Source of the DNA: Myxococcota bacterium
GTDB taxonomy: Bacteria > Myxococcota > JACRCW01
Length of the DNA: 64,000 nt
Direction of reading: 5' to 3'
NCBI GenBank assembly: GCA_040752415.1
Contig: JBFMGU010000003.1
Coordinates: 1-64,000 of the forward strand
Shown here in pieces: positions 1 to 27,385 of this stretch (its first letter is position 1; each line of letters starts with the position of its first letter). A program made the position numbers and the translations under genes. The notes under the pieces were generated by a model. It had not been told where the DNA came from. It worked only from the letters and a program-made list of their open reading frames with translations, and did no database searches.

Positions 1-676
1 CGGCAAGCAGCCGCCCACCCCGCCCGGCGGCGGGCCGCCCGCCCAGAAGCCCCAGCCCGGCATCCTGGCCGCGCTCACCAAGCTGCCCAAGAACAGCGGC
101 GCGGCGGGCAGCCAGACCATGCTGGCGGCGGTGAGCAACATCAACGCGGTCAAGGTCCCCGGCGGCGCGTCCAGCTTCAAGGTGAGCGCGCTCATTGGTC
201 GCGGCCCCACCACCGGCGTGCAGATTGGTGGCTCCGGCGGTGGCGTGGAGACCAAGGGCCTCAACAGCATCCTGCGTGAAGGCGGGGGCGAGGGGCCCGG
301 TGCGCTCGGCGGCAAGGGCAAGGGCCAGGTGCGTGCGGCTCCCGCCATGGCGCTGCACCGTCAGGCCACCGCGCAAGGTGAGCTCTCGCGCGAGGAGATC
401 AGCAAGGTCATCAACCAGAACATGGGTCAGATCCAGTTCTGCTACGAGAAGGAGCTGCTCAAGAACCCGGGCCTGCAGGGCAAGGTCGTCTTCGAGTGGA
501 CCATCAAGCAGGACGGCTCGGTGTCCGTGGTGCGTACCAAGGTGGGCGCGCTGCCCTCGCCCGCCGCCACCAACTGCATGATCGACAAGATCAAGGGCTG
601 GCAGTTCCCCAAGCCCCGCGGCAATGGCGTGGTGGTGGTGACCTATCCGTTCATCTTCAAGCAGGCTGGCTTCTGA
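1..676 (+). CDS. 5'-partial CDS running in from upstream of the window; AgmX/PglI-type (TonB-C-like) C-terminal domain protein, Gly-rich linker
   Basis: Frame 2 is open from position 2 (GKQPPTPPGGGPP...) to the stop at 676, so the gene is truncated by the window. The C-terminal block EISKVINQNMGQIQFCYEKELLKNPGLQGKVVFEWTIKQDGSV...VVVTYPFIFKQ matches the AgmX/PglI C-terminal domain as I remember it. Gly-rich low-complexity region upstream. Confidence 0.5.
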   Translation, partial: GKQPPTPPGGGPPAQKPQPGILAALTKLPKNSGAAGSQTMLAAVSNINAVKVPGGASSFKVSALIGRGPTTGVQIGGSGGGVETKGLNSILREGGGEGPGALGGKGKGQVRAAPAMALHRQATAQGELSREEISKVINQNMGQIQFCYEKELLKNPGLQGKVVFEWTIKQDGSVSVVRTKVGALPSPAATNCMIDKIKGWQFPKPRGNGVVVVTYPFIFKQAGF

Positions 677-738
677 ACTGAATGCGCGGCCTGCCGTCGC
701 CATGACGACGGTGCCGCGGATGCAAGGGTGCAACTGGC

Positions 739-1467
739 ATGAGCGCGGCGTTGCGGTCCAGGTTTGGCCGTTGGGGGATGCTGCCGGGGTGGCTGCTGTG
801 TGCGGCGGTGTTGTGGTGCGCGCCGTCCACCGCCAGCGCGGTGACTCCCTGGTCTCCCTATGACGACGAGGAGCAGACGCTGAAAGCGGAGGTGGTGCAG
901 CAGCGCCGCTTTGGCAAGCTGCACGAGTTCTCCCTCAGCGGCGGCGTCTATCCCCTGGATGCGCTCTACACCGGCGTGGTGGGCACGTTCCGGTACGTGC
1001 TGCATCTCTCCGACCTGTGGGCCTGGGAGATTGCCGGCGGCAGCTACTCGTTCAACATCACCAGCGGCGTGGAGAAGCGCATGCTGGACCGTTACGGGCT
1101 GCAGTTCACCGACACGGAACGCATCCTGGCGCTGGGCGAGAGCAACGTCATCCTCAAGCCCATCTACGGCAAGTTCGCCGTCTTCAACCGCTGGATCTGG
1201 TACGCGGAGCTCTACCTGCTCGCCGGCGTGGCGCTCTCGCGTTACTCGGCCAGCTGGCGCCCCGGCCCCGACTACGGCGCGGGCATCCGTTTCCACCTCT
1301 TCGACTGGCTCGCGCTGCACATGGATGCGCGGCATTACATCCTGTGGTCCGGCATTCCGCCGCCACCGCGTTCCCCGGCGGATTTCCTGCAAGGCCCCGC
1401 CACCCTCAGCAACGTCGTCTATTTCGGCTCCGGCGTGAGCTTCCTGGTCTGGGACAGGTCCCCATGA
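739..1467 (+). CDS. signal-peptide small outer-membrane beta-barrel-like protein (GltA/GltB/NfsA-B-like paralog 1)
   Basis: 242 aa. N-terminal signal peptide (LLCAAVLWCAPSTASA). Alternating aromatic/hydrophobic beta-strand pattern with a C-terminal aromatic (..VSFLVWDRSP). Its stop overlaps the next start (ATGA at 1464-1467). Paralogous to the next ORF (shared motifs such as NVILKPIYGKFAVFNR vs NLVLKPLYGKFSFFNR). Confidence 0.5.
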   Translation: MSAALRSRFGRWGMLPGWLLCAAVLWCAPSTASAVTPWSPYDDEEQTLKAEVVQQRRFGKLHEFSLSGGVYPLDALYTGVVGTFRYVLHLSDLWAWEIAGGSYSFNITSGVEKRMLDRYGLQFTDTERILALGESNVILKPIYGKFAVFNRWIWYAELYLLAGVALSRYSASWRPGPDYGAGIRFHLFDWLALHMDARHYILWSGIPPPPRSPADFLQGPATLSNVVYFGSGVSFLVWDRSP

Positions 1468-2279
1468 GCACGTGGCATCCCATGCGGCTCCTCGTCGTCG
1501 CCCTTCCTGCGTTGTTCCTGGCGCTCACGCCGGAAACCGCGCGCGCCGACCGTCAGGTCATCCAGAACCGCACCTACCGCATGCAGCATGAGTTCACGTT
1601 GGAAGGCGGCGTGCTGCCGTTGGACGTGCTGTACAAGGCCGGCACCGTCACCGGCCGCTACACGTTCCACTTCAACGACTTCCTGGCATGGGAGGCCTTG
1701 AGCCTGACCTATGCGCCCATGACGGACATCAGCATCTTGAACCTGGGCTTTGGCCCATTCCGGTTCAACCACTTCACGCAGCAGGGCAACGACCTCCAGG
1801 ACAACCACGGCTACGACACCTTTGACGTCGACCAGCTGCGCCTGTTCGCGGAGAGCAACCTTGTGCTCAAGCCGCTGTACGGGAAGTTCTCCTTCTTCAA
1901 CCGCGCCAACGCGCGCGTGGAACTTTTTGGCGTTCTGGGCGGGGCTGTGGCCAATTTCATTGCGTACCGCGCCTGGCCCTTCCAGCCGGAGGAGAACATC
2001 GGCACCGTGCCGCCGCTTCCCGCCACCGCCGCCGACATCTTCCCCAAGCCGGGCCAGACCCTGCTCATCCGCCCCGGCGTCAACTTCGGCGGAGGCACGC
2101 GGCTCTACGTCGGTGAGCACTTCAGCGTCCGCCTCGACGCGCGCAGCTACACCTTCCTGGAGGGCTACACCACGCCCAAGGCGCCCGTGCCGCGGGAGCT
2201 GCCGGAGATTCCCGTCGGCTTCACGCAGGTCCTCTACCTCGGCGTGGGAACCAGCCTGAGCTTTGGAGGTGGGCTGTGA
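1464..2279 (+). CDS. signal-peptide small outer-membrane beta-barrel-like protein (paralog 2)
   Basis: Start MSTWHPMRLLVVALPALFLALTPETARA lies inside the longer ORF 1017..2279 and is translationally coupled to the upstream gene. About 271 aa, with similarity to 739..1467 across the whole length. Stop overlaps the next gene's GTG start (GTGA at 2276-2279). Confidence 0.5.
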   Translation: MSTWHPMRLLVVALPALFLALTPETARADRQVIQNRTYRMQHEFTLEGGVLPLDVLYKAGTVTGRYTFHFNDFLAWEALSLTYAPMTDISILNLGFGPFRFNHFTQQGNDLQDNHGYDTFDVDQLRLFAESNLVLKPLYGKFSFFNRANARVELFGVLGGAVANFIAYRAWPFQPEENIGTVPPLPATAADIFPKPGQTLLIRPGVNFGGGTRLYVGEHFSVRLDARSYTFLEGYTTPKAPVPRELPEIPVGFTQVLYLGVGTSLSFGGGL

Positions 2280-3820
2280 AGGCGCGCGGTCTGGTGTTGC
2301 TGGCGCTCGTCGTGGCGCCGTGGTGGGTGGCCGCGCAGGCCGACAAGAATGGCAAGCCCCCGCCGCCTCCTCCCGCGCAGCCCGTGGCCCCAAGTCCCGA
2401 CGGGGGACCCGCTGCTTCCGTCGACGGCGGTGCTCCCGCGCCCAAGGCGGTGCCGGCCAGCGTGTTCGAGAGCGGTGTGAAGGCCTTCAATCGCGGCAAC
2501 TACGGTGAGGCCGCCGGCAAGTTCTTCCAGTACATCCAGGGCAACGAGCCCGCGGCCACGTTCTATGACTGGTCGGAGTACTACCTGGGGCGCAGCCTGC
2601 GCGCCGGCGGGCTCAACCACGCTGGCGACGAGTATCTCTACAACGTGGCCAAGGCGCGCAGCCGCCCGGAGCTGGTCCCCGACGCACTGCGTGGCATCGA
2701 GGAGGACATCCGCACCGGCGTCTACGACGAGGAGCTGCTCATCAAGGACCTGATTGCCGGCAGCGAGTTCGGCGACCAGCCCAACGACGTCACCGCGTTC
2801 ATCCAGTTCTACCAGGGCGTGGCCGACCTGCGGGACCGCAATGAGCTGTGGGCGCGCGGTCACTTCGAGCGCATCCCGCCCGGCACGCGTTACACCGCGC
2901 AGGCGCAGTACGTGATTGCCGTTCAGGAGCTGGCGCGCGGCAACCTGGAGAAGGCGCGGGAGCTCTTCACGGAGGCCGCCGAGGACCCGCGCGCCGACCT
3001 CAAGACGCGCAACAACGCGCACCGCGCCCTGGCGCGCATGGCGTTCGAGGAGAAGGACTACCTGGGCGCCATCAAGAAATATGGCGACGTGAAGGTCCCG
3101 TTCCTCTCCGAGGAGGAAGCCACCATCTTCCTGGAGATTGCCTGGGCGCGTTACCACCTCAAGGACTACCGCGGCGCACTCGCCATCCTGATTTCGCTGG
3201 ATGCGCCGAGTTATCGCCAGGCCTACTTCCCGGAGCGCTGGATTCTCGAGGCGCTCATCTACAAGAGCCTGTGTCACTACGCTGCGTCCAAGAGCAGCGC
3301 GCGGGAGTTCACCCGTCGGTACGGTGACGCGCTCAAGGCCGTGCGCGAGCAGCGCTCACCGCTGGCCCATCCCGTCATCCGCAACGCCGCGTTGCAGAGC
3401 CCGGTGGCGGGTCGAAGGCTGGCGCACCTCAAGCGTCTCAACGCCGAGCGCGACCGGCTCTCCGGCTTCTCCACCAGCGCCGACCTCTCCAAGCACCTCA
3501 AGCGCCTCTACGACCTCAAGGTCAAGGAAGGCGCGCGTCTCCTCGAGGAGGACCTGGAGAAGGAGGCCAAGCGCGTGGCGGAGGAGCTGTTGGACTTCGA
3601 GGAGCAGGCCCGGCTCGTCGACTACGAGGTGGGCCTGGAGGTGTTCCGACGGGTGCCGCAGGCCGCGCGTCGGGCCACGGTGGAGTCGCGCAGCTCGGCT
3701 CCGCCGCTGGGCGGTCACGACGTGCACTACGTCTTTGACGGTGAATACTGGAACGACGAGCTGCACGACTACCAGGTCTCCATCGAGGACCGGTGCTTTG
3801 CGGAAGGGTTGTTCAAATGA
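2276..3820 (+). CDS. secreted TPR/helical-repeat protein (GltC/NfsC-like position)
   Basis: 514 aa. GTG start with signal peptide MKARGLVLLALVVAPWWVAAQA. A Pro/Ala-rich linker is followed by helical repeats. Stop overlaps the next start (ATGA at 3817-3820). Confidence 0.45.
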   Translation: MKARGLVLLALVVAPWWVAAQADKNGKPPPPPPAQPVAPSPDGGPAASVDGGAPAPKAVPASVFESGVKAFNRGNYGEAAGKFFQYIQGNEPAATFYDWSEYYLGRSLRAGGLNHAGDEYLYNVAKARSRPELVPDALRGIEEDIRTGVYDEELLIKDLIAGSEFGDQPNDVTAFIQFYQGVADLRDRNELWARGHFERIPPGTRYTAQAQYVIAVQELARGNLEKARELFTEAAEDPRADLKTRNNAHRALARMAFEEKDYLGAIKKYGDVKVPFLSEEEATIFLEIAWARYHLKDYRGALAILISLDAPSYRQAYFPERWILEALIYKSLCHYAASKSSAREFTRRYGDALKAVREQRSPLAHPVIRNAALQSPVAGRRLAHLKRLNAERDRLSGFSTSADLSKHLKRLYDLKVKEGARLLEEDLEKEAKRVAEELLDFEEQARLVDYEVGLEVFRRVPQAARRATVESRSSAPPLGGHDVHYVFDGEYWNDELHDYQVSIEDRCFAEGLFK

Positions 3821-6800
3821 GCCGCGGTCTTGCTCTCCTCCTGGCGTTGTCCATTCCGCTGATGTCCGGCGCCGCGGATTGGCGCAACAAGCAGCAGCGC
3901 AAGGATGAGTTCCTCCTGCAGCTCAAGCGGGACATCAACAAGACCGACAAGTCCATTGCCATCACCAAGGACCTCATCGCCCGCAGCAAGGGCGAGAAAT
4001 ACCTCCCGGACCTCCACTTCCGCTTGGCCGAGCTCTACGTGGCCAAGAGCCGCCTCCTGTACTTCAAGGTGCTGGAAGAGGCCGGGCTCGAGGACAAGCG
4101 CAGCGTCACGGCGCCGGAAGCGCGGCTGCTGAAGGACCAGGCCATCCGCACGTACCGTCGCATCCTGCAGGAGTTCCCGGACTACCCGGACAACGACAAG
4201 ATCCGCTTCTTCGTCGGCCATGAGCTGCGTGAGCTCGGCGAGTTCGAGGCGATGATCCGCGAGTACCAGCTCCTCGTGGAGCAGTACCCGGACAGTGATT
4301 TCCGCTGGGAGGCCTACCTCGTCCTCGGCGACTACTACTTTGACAAGGCCGACCTCGATAACGCCGAGCTCTATTACAAGAAGATCGTCAACAGCCCGGA
4401 GACCTACGTCCACAACCTGGCGCGCTACAAACTCGCGTGGTGCCACCTCAACCGCGAGCGCTTCAAGGAAGCGCTGGAGCTGTTCGAGAAAGTCATCCTC
4501 ACCGAGCAGATCGACGTCAACAAGAGCCTCCAGATTGACGCGCACGGCCGCATGAACGTGAAGCGGGAGGCGCTGGTGGACAGCGCGTTCTGCTACACCG
4601 AGGTGAAGAAGCCGCAGGACGCGGTGCCGTACTATCGCAAGCTGGCGCAGAGCCGCTCCGACTACATCGCCGCGCTGGAGAAGCTGGCCCGTCGCTATTC
4701 CATCAAGGGCGACCCGGGCGCCGCCGCCACGCTGTACCGCGAGGCCATGGCGTACTCCAATGACGTCGAGCACAACATGGACCTGGCCCTCAAGATCTAC
4801 GAGATGGTCCAGCAGTCCAAGAAGCGCGACGAGACCGACAAGGACGTGGAGCTCATGGTGGCCGCCGCCGCGCGCTACCGCTTCTCCTGGCGCGGTACCG
4901 AGGAGCAGAAGAAGCAGGCGCTGGAGGACTTTGAGCTCCTCACCCGTGACCTCAGCACCAAGCTGCAGCTGGAAGCGCAACAGAAGGACGACGCCAAGCT
5001 GCACGCCAAGGCCGCGCGCGCCTACAAGGCCTATCTCTCGCTCTTCAAGGACAGCCCCAACGGCAAGGACATGACGTGGAATTACGCCGAGGCGCTGTTC
5101 GAGAGCGGGCAGTACGTCGAGGCGGGGCGCGTGTTCGAGAAGCTGGCGCAGGACGCGGAGAGCGCTTCCGGTCCCAAGCAGGCCGCCGCCGACAAGCCCG
5201 CCGACGCCAAGGCCGCCAAGCCCGACGAGAAGAAGCCCGCCAAGGCCGCGCCCGCTGTGCCGCCTCCGCCCAGGAAGGGGGCCGGCGCCAAGAAGGATGA
5301 CGTCGTCGAAATTGCCACCAAGGCGGGTGGGGGGGCGCCGGAGGATGGTGAGCGTCGCAAGGCCATGTACAGCGCCGTGATGGCGTACTTCCAGGCGCTG
5401 CGGAAGACGCAGAACCTCACCCGGCTGGAACAGACCCTGGCGCGCGAGGGCATCAAGAACCTGGGCGTGCGTTTCGTCGAGGAGTATCCGAAGGATGAGT
5501 TCGCCGCGCAGGTGAAGTTCAACGTGGCGCGCGCGTACTACGAGCAGGGTGAGCTCAAGAAGGCCAATGAGCTCTTTGTGGCCTATGCCGCCGAGCATCC
5601 CGGCAGCAAGGACGCCGTGGCCGCCGCCAACCTGGCGCTGGACGCGTTGCAGCAGCAGGAGAACTACGTGGAGCTGGCCAAGCAGGCGCGCGCGTTCGCC
5701 AAGGACACGCGGCTCGGCGACGACAAGTTCCGCTCCGACATGACCGCGTTGGCCTCGTCGGCGGACCAGCAGGAGATCGACCGCCGCACCATCGAGGCGC
5801 AGGGCAACCTCAAGGAAGCGCTCTCCGACATCATCAAGGAGAAGAAGGGCACCGACCTCGCCGCCAAGGCGCTCTACCAGGCGTTCGCGGTGGCCAAGGA
5901 CCGTCGGGACATCCAGTCCATGCAGAGCGTGGGCACGGAGATCATCACCGAGTATCCCGACTCCACCTACGCGCAAGGCGTCCTTCCCGCGCTGGGTGAG
6001 CTGGCCATCAACGGCGGCGAGTACGACCGAGGCGCCGGCTACTACGAGGAATTCACGCGCCGCTTCCCCAACGACAAGGCCTCCACCGACCTGCTCTCCG
6101 CCGCCACCGAGCTGCGCCTCGCGCTCGGCGACCGCGCCAACGCCATGACGAATCTCGAGAAGCTCATCAAGGCTTCCGAGGGACCCAAGCGCACCGAGTA
6201 CCAGATGCAGCTCATCCGCACGGCGCTGGAGGCCAAGGCGTGGCGTCGTGCCGCCGACGCGTCCGAGCCGCTGCACGACAACCCGCAGGTGGGCGCCGAG
6301 GCGCGCGTGCTGGGGGCGGAAGGGCTCATCAAGGCCGGTGAGGAGGCCGCGGCGGCGCGCGTGCTGCTGGGGGCCACGCAGATGGTGGCGCGCGGTGAGG
6401 GCGGGGAGAATGGCAAACAGGCAGCCTCACGCGCGTCCTTCATGCTGGGGGAGCTGCTGCGCAAGGAGTACGAGCAGATCAAGTTCGGTTCGGGTGCCGA
6501 CGACGCCACCGTGCTGGCCGCCAAGTTCCAGAAGCTGGAGGAGCTGGAGAAGATCTACGGCCAGGCGGTGCAGCTGGGAGATGCCGGCTCCGCCATTGCC
6601 GCGCTCTACCGCGTGGGCCAAGCCTACCGAGGCGCCGCCGACATGCTCGACGGTGCGCCCATGCCCGAGGGCCTTGCCGAGGCCGACCAGCAGGCCTACC
6701 GCGCCGCGCTGGCCGAGCGCAGTGGCCCGCTCCGCAGCACCGGCGACGAGTACCTGAAGACCTGCAAGGAGAAGAGCGGTCAGCTGCGCATCTTCTCCCC

Positions 6801-7269
6801 GTTCGCCCGCGCGTGCCTCACCGGCGCCCCCGTCCCCGACGAGCTGCCCGGTCCCGCGCCGCGCGCCGTCACCGAAATCCCCGGCGCCGCCGAGCTGCGC
6901 GTGAAGCTGCGCAACAACCCCAAGGACGTGGAAGCGCTGGTGGAGCTGGGCAAGCGCGCGCTGGCCGCCGGCGACTACTACGGCGCCCGCGTCATCTTCA
7001 GCCGCGCCGAGGAGCTCGCCGGCAACCGCGCCGACGTCCACAACGGCCTGGGCGTGGCCAACCATGGCACCGGCGACGTGCAGGCCGCGTACTTCTCCTT
7101 CAAGCGGGCGCTCGAGATCGACAGCGGGTTCGCGCTGGCGCATCACAACCTGGCCATCATGTTCTCCGAGGTGGGCGACACCACCAACGCCAACGCCGAG
7201 AAAGGCGCGGCCGGTGGCGCTCCGCCCGACTCCCCGGAGATCATCAAGCCGCAGGGCGGGGGGGCCTGA
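3817..7269 (+). CDS. large secreted TPR-repeat protein (~1150 aa; AgmU/GltD/NfsD-like)
   Basis: Start MSRGLALLLALSIPLMSGAA (signal peptide) is 8 codons inside the listed ORF 3793..7269 and overlaps the previous stop. It is TPR-like across its length, with a Lys/Ala/Pro-rich linker near the middle (KPAKAAPAVPPPPRKGAGAKK). Stop TGA overlaps the next ATG (7269). Confidence 0.55.
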   Translation: MSRGLALLLALSIPLMSGAADWRNKQQRKDEFLLQLKRDINKTDKSIAITKDLIARSKGEKYLPDLHFRLAELYVAKSRLLYFKVLEEAGLEDKRSVTAPEARLLKDQAIRTYRRILQEFPDYPDNDKIRFFVGHELRELGEFEAMIREYQLLVEQYPDSDFRWEAYLVLGDYYFDKADLDNAELYYKKIVNSPETYVHNLARYKLAWCHLNRERFKEALELFEKVILTEQIDVNKSLQIDAHGRMNVKREALVDSAFCYTEVKKPQDAVPYYRKLAQSRSDYIAALEKLARRYSIKGDPGAAATLYREAMAYSNDVEHNMDLALKIYEMVQQSKKRDETDKDVELMVAAAARYRFSWRGTEEQKKQALEDFELLTRDLSTKLQLEAQQKDDAKLHAKAARAYKAYLSLFKDSPNGKDMTWNYAEALFESGQYVEAGRVFEKLAQDAESASGPKQAAADKPADAKAAKPDEKKPAKAAPAVPPPPRKGAGAKKDDVVEIATKAGGGAPEDGERRKAMYSAVMAYFQALRKTQNLTRLEQTLAREGIKNLGVRFVEEYPKDEFAAQVKFNVARAYYEQGELKKANELFVAYAAEHPGSKDAVAAANLALDALQQQENYVELAKQARAFAKDTRLGDDKFRSDMTALASSADQQEIDRRTIEAQGNLKEALSDIIKEKKGTDLAAKALYQAFAVAKDRRDIQSMQSVGTEIITEYPDSTYAQGVLPALGELAINGGEYDRGAGYYEEFTRRFPNDKASTDLLSAATELRLALGDRANAMTNLEKLIKASEGPKRTEYQMQLIRTALEAKAWRRAADASEPLHDNPQVGAEARVLGAEGLIKAGEEAAAARVLLGATQMVARGEGGENGKQAASRASFMLGELLRKEYEQIKFGSGADDATVLAAKFQKLEELEKIYGQAVQLGDAGSAIAALYRVGQAYRGAADMLDGAPMPEGLAEADQQAYRAALAERSGPLRSTGDEYLKTCKEKSGQLRIFSPFARACLTGAPVPDELPGPAPRAVTEIPGAAELRVKLRNNPKDVEALVELGKRALAAGDYYGARVIFSRAEELAGNRADVHNGLGVANHGTGDVQAAYFSFKRALEIDSGFALAHHNLAIMFSEVGDTTNANAEKGAAGGAPPDSPEIIKPQGGGA

Positions 7270-21602: not shown

Positions 21603-23234
21603 ATGCAGACCGATTCCGTCGTCAAGGAAAAGCCCGTCGCCAAGAACGTTGCACCGCCGCCCGCGCAGCCCGCGTCGGCGACGCCCAAACCGGACGCGCC
21701 GGACCTGCGTCCCACCGCGAACATCAAGTACGACCTGCCCGCGGGCCTGGTGGTCTTCCTGGTGGCGCTGCCGCTTTGCCTGGGCATTGCGCTGGCCTCC
21801 AACGCGCCGCTGTTCTCCGGCGTCATCGCGGGGATTGTGGGTGGCCTGGTGGTCCCGTTCATCAGCGGCTCACCGCTCAGCGTCAGCGGTCCCGCGGCGG
21901 GACTGGCGGCGATTGTCTCCATGGGCATTGCGCAGGTGGGCGGCTTCCCGCAGTTCCTGGCGGCGGTGCTCCTGGGCGGCGTCATCCAGATCCTGCTCGG
22001 CGCGTTCCGGCTGGGCGCGGTGGCGTATTTCATCCCCTCGTCGGTGATCAAGGGCATGCTCACCGCCATTGGCCTGCTCCTCATCTTCAAGCAGCTCCCG
22101 CACGCCATCGGTTATGACGTCGACAACTTTGCCTCCGTGAAGTTCAAGGCCGCCGACGGCAACACCTTCAGCGTGCTGCTGGACTCGGTGAAGACCATGG
22201 AGTGGGGCGCGTTCCTCATCAGCGCGGTCTCGCTCGTCATCCTGGCGGGTTGGGAGCACACGCCGCTCAAGAAGATCTCGTTCCTCCCGTCGGCACTGGT
22301 GGCGGTCGTTGTTGGCTCGCTCATCAATGAGGGACTGGTGTCGTCGGGCTCCGCGCTGGCGTTGGGGAGCACGCACCTGGTGGACCTTCCGCCCATGGAC
22401 GGCGTGGGTGGCTTCGTGGCGCAGCTGCAGATGCCGCAGTGGAGCGCGTTCACCAACCCGCAGGTGTGGGTCATGGGGCTCACGCTTGGCATCGTGGCGT
22501 CGTTGGAGACGCTGCTCAGCATTGAGGCGGTGGACAAGCTGGACCCGTTCCACCGCAAGAGCCCGCTCAACCGTGAGCTGCTGGCGCAGGGCGCGGCCAA
22601 CGCCACCTCCGGTCTCATCGGCGGGTTGCCCATCACCGCCGTCATCGTGCGCAGCAGCGCCAACGTGAATGCCGGTGCGCGCACGCAGGCCTCCGCCATC
22701 TTCCACGGTGTGTTCCTGTTCCTCGCGGTGGTATTCGCCGGGAGCCTGTTGGTGCACATCCCGCTGGCGTGCCTGGCCTCCATCCTGCTCATGACCGGCT
22801 ACAAGCTGGCCAAGCCCGCCATGTTCCGCGCCATGTTCCAGCTGGGTTGGGGTCAGTTCATCCCGTTCATGGCCACCATCGTCGCCATTGTGTTCACCGA
22901 CCTGCTGCGCGGCATTGGCGTGGGCTTGGTGGTGGGCCTGGCGTTCGTGATCCGCGCCAACATCCGCGACGCGTTCACCGTCAAGAAGCACGGCTCCAGC
23001 TATCTCATCCTGCTGCGCAAGGACGTGTTCTTCTACAACAAGGCCGTGCTCATCCAGGCGCTGGAGCGCATCCCGTCGGGCGCCAGCGTGATTGTCGACG
23101 GAGGCAGCACCGAGTTCATTGACATGGACATCTACGAGGCGGTGCTGGCCTTCAAGGCAGGCGCCGCGGCGCGCAACATCAACGTGGAGCTGCGGCTGCG
23201 CGCGCCCGGCGTCATGGCGCCCGCGGCGCATTGA
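21603..23234 (+). CDS. SulP-family anion transporter with C-terminal STAS domain (BicA/sulfate-permease-like)
   Basis: Start MQTDSVVKEK is preceded by GAGG 7 nt upstream. The listed ORF 21540.. overlaps the previous gene and is less likely. SulP hallmarks: LVVFLVALPLCLGIALASNAPLFSGVIAGIVGGLV.. Multiple TM segments. C-terminal STAS-like fold (YLILLRKDVFFYNKAVLIQALERIPSGASVIVDGGSTEFIDMDIYEAVLAF). Confidence 0.8.
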   Translation: MQTDSVVKEKPVAKNVAPPPAQPASATPKPDAPDLRPTANIKYDLPAGLVVFLVALPLCLGIALASNAPLFSGVIAGIVGGLVVPFISGSPLSVSGPAAGLAAIVSMGIAQVGGFPQFLAAVLLGGVIQILLGAFRLGAVAYFIPSSVIKGMLTAIGLLLIFKQLPHAIGYDVDNFASVKFKAADGNTFSVLLDSVKTMEWGAFLISAVSLVILAGWEHTPLKKISFLPSALVAVVVGSLINEGLVSSGSALALGSTHLVDLPPMDGVGGFVAQLQMPQWSAFTNPQVWVMGLTLGIVASLETLLSIEAVDKLDPFHRKSPLNRELLAQGAANATSGLIGGLPITAVIVRSSANVNAGARTQASAIFHGVFLFLAVVFAGSLLVHIPLACLASILLMTGYKLAKPAMFRAMFQLGWGQFIPFMATIVAIVFTDLLRGIGVGLVVGLAFVIRANIRDAFTVKKHGSSYLILLRKDVFFYNKAVLIQALERIPSGASVIVDGGSTEFIDMDIYEAVLAFKAGAAARNINVELRLRAPGVMAPAAH

Positions 23235-23237
23235 GTC

Positions 23238-23620
23238 CCCCCAAGAAGGAAGTCAGGAGTCAGAAGTCAGAAGATGGTCCCGCGACGACGACGGGTAGGC
23301 ATCTTCTGAAGGGGCGTTGGAGAAGTTCCGACAAGGGCGTCACAACGGAGAGTGTGGTCCTGCCCTGCTTGTTGCGGCGGGCGAGCCCGCACCTGGCAAT
23401 GTGGCGGCGCCAAGCGCGTCACGAAGCGGGTGGGCGGAAGCAGCGGCGCCCTGGAGTGCGGTGCGAACCGAGCGAGCGGTCGACGACGTGAAGCACCGCC
23501 CTGGATCGGGCCGCTCCGACGGCGCATCCGACAGACCCTCAGAAGGTGCTCTCCCGTCGTCGTCACGGGACCAACCTTCTGACTTCTGACTCCTGACTCC
23601 TGACTTCCTTTTGGGATCCC
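23238..23620. repeat. long imperfect palindrome: ~75-bp inverted-repeat arms (GGAAGTCAGGAGTCAGAAGTCAGAAG...GGTCCCGCGACGACGACGGG...) separated by ~235 bp
   Basis: Left arm 23238-23312 and right arm 23545-23620 are reverse complements with only a few mismatches. The outer parts carry a tandem GTCAGAA/GTCAGGA motif. A nested second inverted pair (GTCCCGCGACGACGACGGG / CCCGTCGTCGTCACGGGAC) sits inside. Intergenic between SulP and a hypothetical gene. Confidence 0.7.
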
Positions 23621-23674
23621 CGACAACCCATGACCCACATTGCGACCGCAGATCGCGACCTCTAACGTCAGGGC

Positions 23675-24226
23675 GTGCCGCGCCCGTCCATTCCCCGCGC
23701 CGTGCCTCCCGCCACGCCCGCGGGTGTCATCTCCGCGCGGCCCGGATTGCGTGGTCACGACGGGCGTTGGCCGCGTCGCATCCTGGGCCTGATGCTGTTG
23801 CTGGCGTGCATCCCCGCCACCTGCATGGCGGTGGTGGACCGCCTGTTTCCCACCGAGGGGAGCTTCGCCAACCTGGCGGCCATGCGGGAGCGCGGCTGGC
23901 ACGTGCCCACGTTCGTCCCGCCTGTGGCGACGGAGATCCGCGTGTGGAGCCATCCGCCGGCGCGCACGTGGGCCATGCGGTTCCGTTTCCCGACGGGGAA
24001 TCCCTGGATCTCGTCGCACGGCGTGGAGGTGCCCACCGCGGAGGTGCCCTACCGTCTGCCCACGGAGCAGGTTCCCCCGTGGTGGCCCCCGGAGCTCGAC
24101 GGCGCACGCGCGGTGGGAGCGCAGCCGGGTGTGACGTACGTGCGGTTCCACCGGTCGCGGAATTCCTCGTTCTTCTGCGCGGTCACGGCGGAATCCGTGG
24201 CGCACTGCTGGCACCGGCGACACTGA
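23675..24226 (+). CDS. hypothetical membrane protein
   Basis: 183 aa. One clear TM helix (ILGLMLLLACIPATCMAVV). No recognisable domain. Codon usage is consistent with neighbours. Confidence 0.3.
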   Translation: MPRPSIPRAVPPATPAGVISARPGLRGHDGRWPRRILGLMLLLACIPATCMAVVDRLFPTEGSFANLAAMRERGWHVPTFVPPVATEIRVWSHPPARTWAMRFRFPTGNPWISSHGVEVPTAEVPYRLPTEQVPPWWPPELDGARAVGAQPGVTYVRFHRSRNSSFFCAVTAESVAHCWHRRH

Positions 24227-24287
24227 GTTGCACGGCTGGTTTCCCCGGGGCGGTCCTGCTAGGAGGGGGCCCGGAACCGAGCAGCCC

Positions 24288-24653
24288 ATGCCCAATCCCG
24301 CCGACATTGCCAAAGTGCGTGCGTTCATTTCCCGCGAGCTGGACACCATCAGTGAGTACGTCGCCATGGCGGAGGCCGCCGAGGACCCCGTGGTGAAGGA
24401 GCTCTTCATCCACGTGGCGCGCGAGGAGAAGGAGCACGTGGCGGAGGGCATGCGCCTGTTGCACGCGCTGGATCCGGATCAGGCCAGCGTGGAGTCGGCG
24501 CACGCGGAGGCGCTGCTGGGCGGGGCGGCGGGCTCGTCGTTGGGGCCGTTGGCCACGCCCGTGTCGTCGGCCGCGTCCACGCCCGCTTCCGCGCCGCCGG
24601 ATGGCCCCGGGAAAGGCACCTTCACCGTAGGCAACCTCCGACGGGGCGCCTGA
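24288..24653 (+). CDS. encapsulin cargo: ferritin-like (EncFtn/rubrerythrin-like) protein with C-terminal targeting peptide
   Basis: Start MPNPADIAK is preceded by AGGAGGGGG. ExxH ferritin-like helices (VAREEKEHVAEGMRLLHALD). Disordered Ala/Ser/Pro linker, then C-terminal ...GKGTFTVGNLRRGA, resembling the TVGSLR-type encapsulin cargo-loading peptide. Immediately upstream of an encapsulin shell gene. Confidence 0.7.
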   Translation: MPNPADIAKVRAFISRELDTISEYVAMAEAAEDPVVKELFIHVAREEKEHVAEGMRLLHALDPDQASVESAHAEALLGGAAGSSLGPLATPVSSAASTPASAPPDGPGKGTFTVGNLRRGA

Positions 24654-24709
24654 CCTCCCACGTTGTTATCTTCCTCCCACCCGCATTCCGGTTTGCACGG
24701 AGACACTCC

Positions 24710-25594
24710 ATGCCCACCCCTCCCAGCTATCACAGCTACACCGGTCACGCCGAGAACCCGCTGACGCCCGACGAGTGGAACAAGATGCGCGCCGCGGTCA
24801 TCGAGAGCGCCACGCGTCACATGGTGGGACGTCGGATCATTGACGTCTACGGTCCGCTGGGGCCGGGCGTGCAGAGCCTCCCGTTCGAGCAGTTCGCCGA
24901 CGCTTCGCTGGGCACCGTGGACCTGATTGGTGAGAAGAGCGAGGGCGCGGTGGTGGCGGAGAGCCGTCGCTTCAAGCCCATCCCGATGATCCACAAGGAC
25001 TTCGTGCTGCACTGGCGTGACCTGGAGGCCAGCCGTGGCGGGGCCTTCCCCCTCGACGTCTCGGCGGCGGCGGGCGCGGCCTCGCTGGTGGCGCGGGCCG
25101 AGGACCGGCTCATCTTCTTTGGCAACGCGGAGCTGGGTTACGACGGGCTCATGAACGCGCAGGGCCGCTCCCACGTGGAGATGCGGTCCTGGGAGCGCAC
25201 CGGCGGCGGGTTCGAGAACGTGGTGGAGGCGCTGGAGGTCCTGCTGGCGCACGGTCACTACGGCCCCTACGCCATGGCCGCCAGCCCCAAGCGCTTTGCG
25301 CAGCTGCACCGCGTCTACGAGAAGACCGGCGTCCTCGAGATCGACTCGATCAAGAAGGTGGTCACCGAGGGCATCTTCCAGTCCACCGTGCTCACCGGGG
25401 ACCAGGCGGTGGTGATTGCCGTCGGGAGCGAGCACTTTGACCTGGCGGTGAGCGTGGACGTGGACCTGGCGTACCTGGGCGCGGAGAAGATGAACCATCC
25501 CTTCCGCGTGCTGGAGTGCGTGGCGCTGCGCATCAAGCACCCCGACGCCATCTGCACCTTCGAGGCGGGTCCGCAGCGTCGTGGCAAGGGCTGA
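24710..25594 (+). CDS. family-1 encapsulin shell protein (HK97 fold, linocin M18-like; EncA-like)
   Basis: 294 aa. About half the residues match M. xanthus EncA as I remember it (GHAENPL..EW, VGRRIxDxYGPLG, KDFxLHWRD, PLDVSAAAGAA, GHxGPYA, YEKTGVLEI, MNHPFRVLE..LRIKHPDAICT). Confidence 0.85.
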   Translation: MPTPPSYHSYTGHAENPLTPDEWNKMRAAVIESATRHMVGRRIIDVYGPLGPGVQSLPFEQFADASLGTVDLIGEKSEGAVVAESRRFKPIPMIHKDFVLHWRDLEASRGGAFPLDVSAAAGAASLVARAEDRLIFFGNAELGYDGLMNAQGRSHVEMRSWERTGGGFENVVEALEVLLAHGHYGPYAMAASPKRFAQLHRVYEKTGVLEIDSIKKVVTEGIFQSTVLTGDQAVVIAVGSEHFDLAVSVDVDLAYLGAEKMNHPFRVLECVALRIKHPDAICTFEAGPQRRGKG

Positions 25595-26960: not shown

Positions 26961-27127
26961 CCGGCGCGGCCCCTCCGGTGCCTCCCCGAGGTGACGGCGC
27001 AGCGTGACGCGTGGGTTGGGTTGGGAGGGTGTGGCCGGGGGGCCCGCGGAAGGTTCACTTGTCCCAAGGTGTATTACACCTCAAAGAGAACATGACATGC
27101 CCGGCGAGGGGCCCCCCTCCGCACCGG
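26961..27127 (-). repeat. dispersed ~150-bp repeat, copy A (palindromic core GGTGTATTACACC; conserved CCCTCCCAACCCAACCCACGC block)
   Basis: The reverse complement of 26961-27127 aligns nearly base-for-base with 27261-27385 and partly with 39441-39600. Confidence 0.65.
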
Positions 27128-27260
27128 AACCGGTGACACCGACGGTCACCTGACGCGCTGATCCGGATCACCTGGGTCCGGGCGCACGCGGTGGCAGGCG
27201 GCGCATGCCGCTGTTTCAACGTACCCGAAAGCGGCCGGGTGACGGGGCCCGTGCGGCGAT

Positions 27261-27385
27261 CATGTCAAGTCTTGTTTGAGGTGTAATACACCTTGGGGCA
27301 AGTGGAGCTACCGCGGGCCCCCCGGCCACACCCTCCCAACCCAACCCACGCATCACGCTGCGCCGTTACCTCGGGGAGGCACCCC
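27261..27385 (+). repeat. dispersed ~150-bp repeat, copy B (inverted relative to copy A, ~130 bp spacer)
   Basis: CATGTCAAGTCTTGTTTGAGGTGTAATACACCTTGG...CCGCGGGCCCCCCGGCCACACCCTCCCAACCCAACCCACGCATCACGCTGCGCCG. Lies in a convergent intergenic region (purA 3' end / minus-strand gene 3' end). Confidence 0.65.

Follow-up and report, generated by a model that had tools for sequence, protein, structure and literature searches.

A stretch of 64,000 nucleotides from a Myxococcota bacterium (assembly GCA_040752415.1, contig JBFMGU010000003.1, positions 1 to 64,000; hereafter the window) contains, between the gene for a SulP anion transporter and a gene for an orphan protein, a long nested palindrome whose outer arms are tandem repeats of the heptad GTCAGRA. 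The question raised by this locus is what kind of element the palindrome is. An earlier, sequence-only reading had offered an insertion resembling a miniature inverted-repeat transposable element (MITE), a long structured RNA or a cruciform; it missed the tie of the heptads to the intervening sequences (IVSs) of ribosomal RNA (rRNA) and to the intergenic heptanucleotide repeats of bacteria. We find that hairpins with GTCAGRA stems are a widespread, little-studied bacterial class, whose heptads are shared with the base of rRNA IVSs. The reading that we favour, tentatively and with somewhat less than even confidence, is that the element at 23238–23620 may be a non-coding, non-autonomous, heptad-capped hairpin insertion, IVS- and MITE-like, whose transcript would form a stem serving as a substrate for RNase III by analogy with known IVSs. 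Most probably we are dealing with a small insertion that encodes nothing, and not with a novel type of system.

Structure of the element

The long palindrome was found where it had been reported and was resolved by an inverted-repeat search into three inverted repeats. These were an outer pair (23241–23273 and 23583–23615, 33 nt, 91%), a second, perfect 23-nt register of the outer arms (23251–23273 and 23576–23598), made possible by the tandem repetition of heptads within the arms, and an inner pair of 47 nt (Table 1). Gapped alignment of one arm against the other gave 75 Watson-Crick pairs and 7 mismatches over a stem of ~85 aligned positions, with three G-U pairs in the plus-strand RNA and four in the minus-strand RNA. 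The predicted folding energy of a 401-nt stretch was −223 kcal/mol for the plus strand and −219 kcal/mol for the minus strand (z = −8.4 and −8.3, respectively), and none of 100 shuffled sequences folded equally well.

The pattern of three consecutive GTCAGRA units has four matches in the window, against 0.01 expected, and all lie inside the two arms. Period-7 repeats of 3.6 and 4.6 copies were reported by Tandem Repeats Finder in this intergenic DNA, and the element thus contains the run of at least three tandem 7-nt units in non-coding DNA that defines an intergenic heptanucleotide simple sequence repeat (SSR). The tandem GTCAGAA/GTCAGGA units described earlier were confirmed, three on the left and four on the right, as was a second inverted pair, GGTCCCGCGACGACGACGGG, which is present with one mismatch (0.09 expected); the stretch between the arms, given earlier as ~235 bp, had to be corrected to a core of 205 nt between the inner arms. 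On a plus-strand transcript, TTCCTTTTGGG forms a U-rich tail behind the heptad stem. The outer arms are 47–50% GC (left arm 47%), compared with 69% for the genome.

The open reading frames (ORFs) inside the element have a GC content at third codon positions (GC3) of 0.64–0.72, against 0.87–0.92 in the adjoining real genes, and translation in six frames gave no Pfam match at E ≤ 10, in keeping with the earlier statement that no convincing ORF is present. Rfam gave no match of worth at E ≤ 1 (the best in 22000–25000, E = 0.89, was far under its gathering score), and a scan of the whole window at gathering thresholds returned no family and no rRNA. The element is thus not a member of a known Rfam family by covariance model, and readings of it as a ribozyme or as RNase P were dropped. 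Of the structured RNA proposed earlier, then, a stable fold on both strands was obtained but no Rfam match to support it. With its terminal inverted repeats, small size and lack of coding capacity, the element shares these three attributes with MITEs.

Table 1. Features of the hairpin element and of the neighbouring genes (positions in the window)
Feature	Position	Strand	Size	Remarks
Whole hairpin element	23238–23620		383 bp	Repeat search, RNA fold, arm alignment
5' terminal purine-rich motif CCAAGAAGGAA	23241–23251			Immediately 5' of heptads
Left heptad array GTCAGGA GTCAGAA GTCAGAA	23252–23272		3 units	
Left inner arm, unique sequence	23275–23321		47 nt	Contains GGTCCCGCGACGACGACGGG and one inverted heptad-like TTCTGAA
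Core	23322–23526		205 nt	71% GC; without coding signal, Pfam/S23p similarity or Rfam match
Right inner arm	23527–23573		47 nt	79% complementary to 23275–23321
Right heptad array TTCTGAC TTCTGAC TCCTGAC TCCTGAC	23577–23604		4 units	Left array plus one unit
3' terminal pyrimidine-rich motif TTCCTTTTGGG	23605–23615			Pairs with 23241–23251
SulP anion transporter gene	21603–23234	+	543 aa as annotated	Upstream; Pfam Sulfate_transp, E = 1e-53
Orphan gene AB2A00_00860	23675–24226	+	183 aa	Downstream; GC3 0.88
EncFtn/rubrerythrin-like gene	24228–24653		141 aa	
Linocin_M18 encapsulin shell gene	24710–25594			E = 6e-64

Likeness to rRNA intervening sequences

The IVSs of 23S rRNA (helix 45 in Coxiella burnetii; also Leptospira and Salmonella) share with the element a length of ~400 nt, terminal inverted repeats and a long stem. 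The Coxiella IVS is a stem-loop of 428–444 nt whose 5' side reads AGAAGA, then three GACAGAT units, then GACAGAA; RNase III cleaves it at the first heptamer, and its S23p ORF is decaying (PMC4990558). The left end of the window element, AAGAAGGAA GTCAGGA GTCAGAA GTCAGAA, has the same form, a purine-rich motif and tandem heptamers on the 5' side of the stem, with CCAAGAAGGAA comparable to the AGAAGA of Coxiella and GTCAGGA/GTCAGAA in place of GACAGAT/GACAGAA.

An IVS with the exact GTCAGAA/TTCTGAC units of the element was found in a metagenome-assembled genome (MAG) of the Rhodospirillales (L026) whose sequence includes a complete segment of an rRNA operon; Rfam places the 23S gene at 296–3551 and the 5S gene at 3715–3829. 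Within conserved 23S sequence lies an insertion (1488–1985) that contains an S23p ORF (1511–1915) and is flanked by GTCAGAA GACAGTT GACAGAT GACAGAT... on one side and ...CTGTCATCTGTC TTCTGAC on the other; from inspection by eye, we take its site to be the helix-45 region. The spacer between the 23S and 5S genes (3591–3700) is filled by a separate, ORF-less (GTCAGAA/GACAGAT)n hairpin. Two marks of an IVS, a terminal complementary stem that loops out the interior (here 75 Watson-Crick pairs, z = −8.4) and tandem heptamers at the base of the stem, as in the Coxiella type and in L026 (here 3 + 4 GTCAGRA units), are thus both present in the window element. Unlike an IVS, it lies outside rRNA genes, has no S23p ORF or remnant of one, and carries an extra 47-nt unique inner arm.

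S23p cassettes and insertions of the same build

Plasmid matches to the right arm fell on genes annotated as 'four helix bundle protein'. On pNPUN01 of Nostoc punctiforme and plasmid C of Trichormus variabilis, a 121-aa gene of the S23p family (PF05635, 23S_rRNA_IVP; E = 5e-36) is bracketed by heptads, the (A/G/T)TCAGRA units reaching the start codon and the TYCTGA(C) units overlapping the stop codon. A sample of 13 plasmid-borne S23p genes was taken across the ranking (L121, L122, L138–L148), and 12 of these had tandem 7–8-nt arrays on both flanks, most of them inverted and with the purine-rich array 5'. The flank units are lineage-specific (AGGAGAT, GGTGACA, AAAGCTA, CTGCCYT, GGACAGA, AAGGTTY and others). 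In the literature searched, we did not find a general association of S23p genes with heptad flanks described. Several of the sampled genes lie between operon genes, such as cas10 and cmr3, or cas6 and cas4.

Free-standing S23p cassettes (PF05635, TIGR02436) have arms of the same type and polarity as the window element, 5' (R)TCAGRA and 3' TYCTGA(C); they are ~450 nt in total, fill gaps between co-directional genes, and are identified as insertions by the comparison of occupied with empty sites. In contrast, the cargo of the window element is a 205-nt non-coding core without detectable S23p similarity, and with no PF05635 ORF between its arms it was rejected as an S23p gene cassette. As markers of S23p genes the heptads serve in one direction only, since S23p genes are nearly always flanked by heptads and the converse fails.

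With the pNPUN01 region as query, the S23p cassette was found between the same two genes, geneA and geneB, in five plasmids, and the two genes without the cassette in eight. In three of the sites without it (L152, 546–550; L153; L155), geneA and geneB are 3 nt apart, whereas in L121 (1096–1543) the ~447 nt between them comprise both heptad arrays and the S23p ORF, so that the whole unit is the indel. ATTCTAA stands at both junctions of the L121 cassette, possibly as a duplication whose 7 bp equal the length of one repeat unit. In L154, the neighbouring gene junction is occupied by a different S23p (40% identical) whose arms are GGGGAAA/CCCTTTT.

An ORF-less hairpin has also been inserted. In plasmid pNPM1 of Nostoc sp. 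N6 (L157, 778–959), an S23p ORF is split by a 182-nt heptad-armed hairpin without an ORF, its 5' arm being TTGAAGAAGAA TTCAGAA GTCAGAA TTCAGGA GTCAGAA and its 3' arm TTCTGAA TTCTGAC TCCTGAC TCCTGAA TTCTGTTTG. By comparison with the intact orthologue the insertion is clean, with no target duplication, and it is the sole insertion that could be reconstructed exactly. The core of the insert recurs across 26 Nostocales plasmids, at 37 places in all, with a homologue of 81% identity in a Dolichospermum genome (L038); thus, ORF-less heptad-armed hairpins can be multi-copy and MITE-like. The termini of the two elements are alike: the window element runs from CCAAGAAGGAA into GTCAGGA and ends with TCCTGAC and TTCCTTTTGGG, and the N6 insert runs from TTGAAGAAGAA into TTCAGAA and ends with TCCTGAA and TTCTGTTTG. 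Both are ORF-less, full-length hairpins with heptad arms and similar ends (GAAGAAGAA... and ...TTCTGTTTG in the Nostocales element). The Nostocales element inserts without target duplication; it differs in its unrelated core, its size of about half (182–208 nt), its phylum and its demonstrated multiple copies. The MITE-like insertion of the sequence-only reading thus gains support by analogy, through the L121 cassette against the empty L152, L153 and L155 sites and through the recurrent L157 insert, while the window copy itself gives no sign of mobility.

The nested architecture of the window element, in which a GTCAGRA array is followed by GAAGG or GATGG, a long GC-rich unique arm, a loop, the complementary arm and a TYCTGAC array, recurs in two further hairpins. 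In a viral contig of 60% GC (L160, IMGVR_UViG_3300047160_036057), a 439-nt hairpin (4177–4615) occupies exactly the space from one ORF to the next, co-directional one and consists of four GTCAGAA units, GAAGG, 130-nt arms that are 96% complementary, a 168-nt loop and TTCTGAC TCCTGAC TTCTGAC; L223 shows this build on a smaller scale and likewise fills an intergenic gap exactly. Beyond the heptads, neither has sequence in common with the window element, and no relationship was found among the three cores, so that these are undescribed analogues and not members of a named family. The 29-kb contig of L160 holds further GTCAGRA arrays and also GCTAGRA arrays (L173, L265).

GTCAGRA heptads across genomes and viral contigs

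A scan for the pattern GTCAGRAGTCAGRAGTCAGRAG in one genome per species gave at least 120 loci, where ~0.5 chance matches would be expected by our own estimate from base frequencies. The loci listed belong to Cyanobacteria, Acidobacteriota, Verrucomicrobiota, Bacteroidota, Nitrospirota, Planctomycetota, Pseudomonadota, Bacillota and others, and among the matches listed the genomes range from 27% to 69% GC. With 92 further stretches in IMG/VR viral contigs, GTCAGRA arrays amount to more than 200 loci in many phyla and in viral contigs. The occurrence of the same heptad from 27% to 69% GC, together with the low GC content of the outer arms, speaks against an origin by mere slippage of the local, native sequence in the window.

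Control heptads were also present in the viral contigs, permuted versions in 15 and 19 stretches and GTGACRA in 63, compared with the 92 of GTCAGRA. GTCAGRA is thus a favoured heptad and not a unique one, in agreement with published work in which heptamer repeats are over-represented in intergenic DNA (PMC4692102; PMC4679880; bioRxiv 10.1101/2022.06.06.494920), the last of which postulates a heptamer-binding partner in Nostoc. Known intergenic heptanucleotide SSRs include the short tandemly repeated repetitive (STRR) sequences of cyanobacteria, TAACTGA of Beggiatoaceae, Cyanobacteria and Bacteroidetes, and GGGAATC of Xanthomonas (PMC4692102; PMC4679880). Like the element, these consist of tandem 7-nt intergenic units that differ in copy number by whole units, and they are occasionally inverted and capable of forming stem-loops; unlike it, they are mostly direct arrays of other unit sequences, without a long unique inner palindrome or core.

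Among the matches listed, GTCAGRA arrays were mostly single and about one fifth had an inverted partner. Where exact arrays of opposite orientation lay within 1 kb of each other, all 15 of the pairs at the loci listed were ordered 5'-GTCAGRA...TYCTGAC-3' and none the reverse, and a looser test by alignment placed the purine-rich array first in 23 of 24. Since this order reads identically on both strands, the asymmetry is a real property of the hairpins. The window element obeys it. The polarity fits the layout of a bidirectional terminator, or a pairing of 5' arms resembling the Shine-Dalgarno (SD) sequence (AGGAG) with 3' arms resembling its complement, the anti-SD (CUCCU). A role of the heptads as 5' leaders was rejected, as ORF starts lay downstream of 72 of 246 arrays compared with 81 of 246 in the antisense control.

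Three loci of the scan are recorded here for their unusual make-up. A viral contig (L172, IMGVR_UViG_3300014656_000076, 1185–7232) has seven GTCAGRA arrays within 6 kb. They share a single orientation, are interspersed with GCCAGGA/GCCGGAAGATAGAA units and seem to occupy one intergenic gap after another. An acidobacteriotal locus (L059, 1050–1560) has, between its GTCAGAA and TTCTGAC arrays, ~350 nt of microsatellite made up of (TCAGAA)n and (TCAAA)n. At L105 (2230–2300), (GAGTCGG)n is paired with (TTCTGAC)n. Complementarity of these arms depends on G-U pairs and so exists on one strand only, a hint of pairing at the RNA level rather than the DNA level at this locus.

Genomic setting

The gap between the SulP and orphan genes (23235–23674) is 440 bp, of which the element takes 383. 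The SulP stop codon lies 3 nt 5' of the hairpin, so that a read-through transcript would enter the left arm; the right arm stops 55 nt ahead of the downstream start codon. A consensus scan of the element region, which for terminators covers loops of 3–8 nt only, found neither a sigma-70-like promoter nor a canonical terminator.

The 183-aa gene opens a co-directional run that continues with the EncFtn-like gene, the encapsulin gene and purA, and it forms with the EncFtn/rubrerythrin-like gene and the shell gene, in that order, an encapsulin locus (23675–25594). Among 5.8 billion proteins the 183-aa protein has no homologue, its sole match being itself (hypothetical protein AB2A00_00860, MAG: Myxococcota bacterium). 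No identical SulP or encapsulin protein is on record. The reading of the element as a retron was rejected, since none of the neighbours (SulP, the 183-aa orphan, EncFtn-like, encapsulin, purA) has a reverse transcriptase domain and there is no Rfam match.

The earlier statement that the window holds no second copy stands for the sequence of the element, although an unrelated larger hairpin is present at 26977–27383, directly 3' of purA. Its 143-nt arms (26977–27119 and 27241–27383) are 87% complementary and enclose a 121-nt loop, and its RNA fold is predicted at −352 kcal/mol (z = −21). GTCAGRA heptads are absent from this hairpin, but it contains GGGTTGGGTTGGGAGGG, G-rich 5' and C-rich 3', and an GGTGTAATACACC palindrome in both arms. 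Alignment showed no sequence relationship between the two hairpins, and the larger one gave no Rfam, S23p or plasmid match. The block from the 183-aa gene through EncFtn and encapsulin to purA is bracketed by the two hairpins.

Proposed behaviour of the putative insertion

Because the SulP stop codon precedes the element by only 3 nt and the consensus scan detected nothing like a terminator, transcription of SulP probably runs into the element. The arms would then zip into the stem of ~85 aligned positions and ~75 Watson-Crick pairs, looping out the core and joining the flanks. By analogy with the heptamer-based stem of the Coxiella IVS, for which cleavage has been demonstrated experimentally, RNase III would be expected to cleave a duplex of this length, and such a cut would part the SulP message from the downstream sequence; the U-rich 3' side may additionally favour termination. 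On this account the element would be tolerated in a transcribed gap and be probably near-neutral for the host. Both mobility and RNA processing of the window copy are what we infer from its analogues.

A number of results weigh against an insertion akin to an IVS. The element is not itself a 23S rRNA IVS, there being no rRNA in the window and its neighbours being the SulP and orphan protein genes, and it contains no S23p remnant that could be found, an unfiltered hmmsearch giving a best E = 7.8 where positive controls gave 1e-26 to 1e-44. Across the scan, an S23p ORF accompanied three of the 120 genome loci listed, two of them adjoining the array, and was absent from all 92 viral loci; since the arrays are mostly single and not linked to S23p, and since other heptads are common, the heptads alone are no proof of kinship with IVSs. 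Further copies are also lacking: the inner arms and core do not recur in the 64-kb window, an inner-arm 20-mer had in the JGI metagenomes only 15 single chance matches and no true second copy, and the plasmid search matched the heptads only. No clean target-site duplication was found at the flanks, where TCCCC is present on both sides but 2 nt out of register. An orthologous empty site was likewise not found in this isolated lineage, the nearest SulP homologues being 62% identical and without synteny and the downstream gene being an orphan. Finally, the G-U pairs have no strand bias (three versus four), so nothing shows selection on an RNA. We know of no transposase for heptad-armed elements.

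Alternative explanations

The main rival places the origin of the element on the spot: heptanucleotide SSRs and a palindromic duplication would have produced a structure that was never mobile and that acts as a terminator, possibly bidirectional, or 3'-end stabiliser of SulP, insulating the encapsulin operon. We regard this as possible but rather unlikely. It draws on the over-representation of intergenic heptamer repeats in bacteria, among which inverted pairs have been described (PMC4692102; PMC4679880), and on the fact that GTCAGRA arrays are themselves mostly single and intergenic. A difference of one unit between the arrays (three versus four) is as expected from slippage, the purine-5'/pyrimidine-3' polarity matches the A-tract, stem and U-tract of bidirectional intrinsic terminators, UUCCUUUU comes after the stem, and there is no other terminator-like site from SulP to the next gene. 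The element is, moreover, single-copy in the window and in the metagenomes scanned. However, the terminator scan was empty here too (for loops of 3–8 nt only), and the 205-nt core and 47-nt unique inner arms exceed the needs of a terminator. The outer arms are 20 points below the genome in GC and identical to arrays of unrelated phyla, and elements of the same architecture have demonstrably been inserted at other loci. A local terminator or insulator thus explains the polarity and the single-copy status, but not the inner arms, the core, the low-GC caps or the mobility of the look-alikes; a non-coding, non-autonomous member of the heptad-capped class is the reading that we find most economical.

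It appears improbable that the element arose by decay from an S23p (four-helix-bundle, 23S_rRNA_IVP) cassette that has lost its ORF. Inverted 7–8-nt arrays, the GTCAGRA type included, flank nearly all S23p genes, and the ORF of the Coxiella IVS is also decaying (PMC4990558). In the window element, an ATG at 23274, 2 nt past the last heptad, opens a frame that is interrupted by a single stop and closes at a TGA within the first heptad of the 3' array, as in the Nostoc cassettes. At this GC content, however, 103 codons should contain one stop in ~38% of cases (our own estimate from base composition), so that the open frame is uninformative. No similarity was detected in any frame, whether by Pfam at E ≤ 10 or by the unfiltered hmmsearch (best E = 7.8), the GC content by codon position is non-coding, the core has 205 nt against the ~360 nt of an S23p ORF, and ORF-less heptad hairpins with unrelated cores exist elsewhere (L160, L223, the L157 insert, L052).

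More doubtful still is a functional structured RNA, either a small RNA or a 5'-leader riboregulator of the operon of the 183-aa, EncFtn and encapsulin genes, with the stem as closing helix and the core as the functional part. The very stable predicted structure with extra helices in the core, the position directly upstream of the operon, and the SD-like AGGAG in the purine-rich arm and anti-SD-like CUCCU in the other would suit such an RNA. Yet no Rfam match was obtained even at E ≤ 1, the consensus scan detected nothing resembling a promoter, and the plasmids and JGI metagenomes searched contain no homologue of the core, hence no covariation. Both strands fold equally well and the G-U pairs are unbiased, as expected of a DNA palindrome, and with the right arm ending 55 nt before the start codon the ribosome-binding site is unmasked.

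The least probable explanation is action at the DNA level, through a repeat-binding protein on the heptads or through cruciform extrusion affecting topology or recombination: three heptads make 21 bp, or two helical turns, the symmetry with respect to strand is perfect and a binding partner has been postulated in Nostoc, but extrusion is kinetically unfavourable with a 205-nt spacer, no candidate protein is known, and RNA is favoured by both the polarity rule and the precedent of the IVSs.

Discussion

A wider proposal follows the favoured reading of the element as a heptad-capped insertion, and we advance it as speculation that is more apt to be wrong than right. Heptad-capped hairpins, GTCAGRA...TYCTGAC and its lineage-specific equivalents, may be one mobile class that spans phyla and includes rRNA IVSs, S23p cassettes and ORF-less copies. 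Their insertion into transcribed gaps would leave no target duplication and might be RNA-mediated or aided by an Avd-like S23p; they would be tolerated through excision by RNase III, and their ends or footprints would largely make up the excess of intergenic heptamers.

The same heptad with the same polarity joins three topics that are usually kept separate, namely rRNA IVSs, the genes for S23p/four-helix-bundle proteins and the excess of intergenic heptamers; in the literature searched, we found no description of a link that joins the stems of IVSs to S23p cassettes and to intergenic heptamers. Since such hairpins break assemblies and yield spurious ORFs, their recognition improves annotation. 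For the genome studied here the element matters little, as it is probably a near-neutral insertion. If, however, the three have one shared origin, the result would be a testable model of mobile hairpins that are excised by RNase III and leave no duplication, and that model could explain the origin and spread of IVSs, a question since about 1990.

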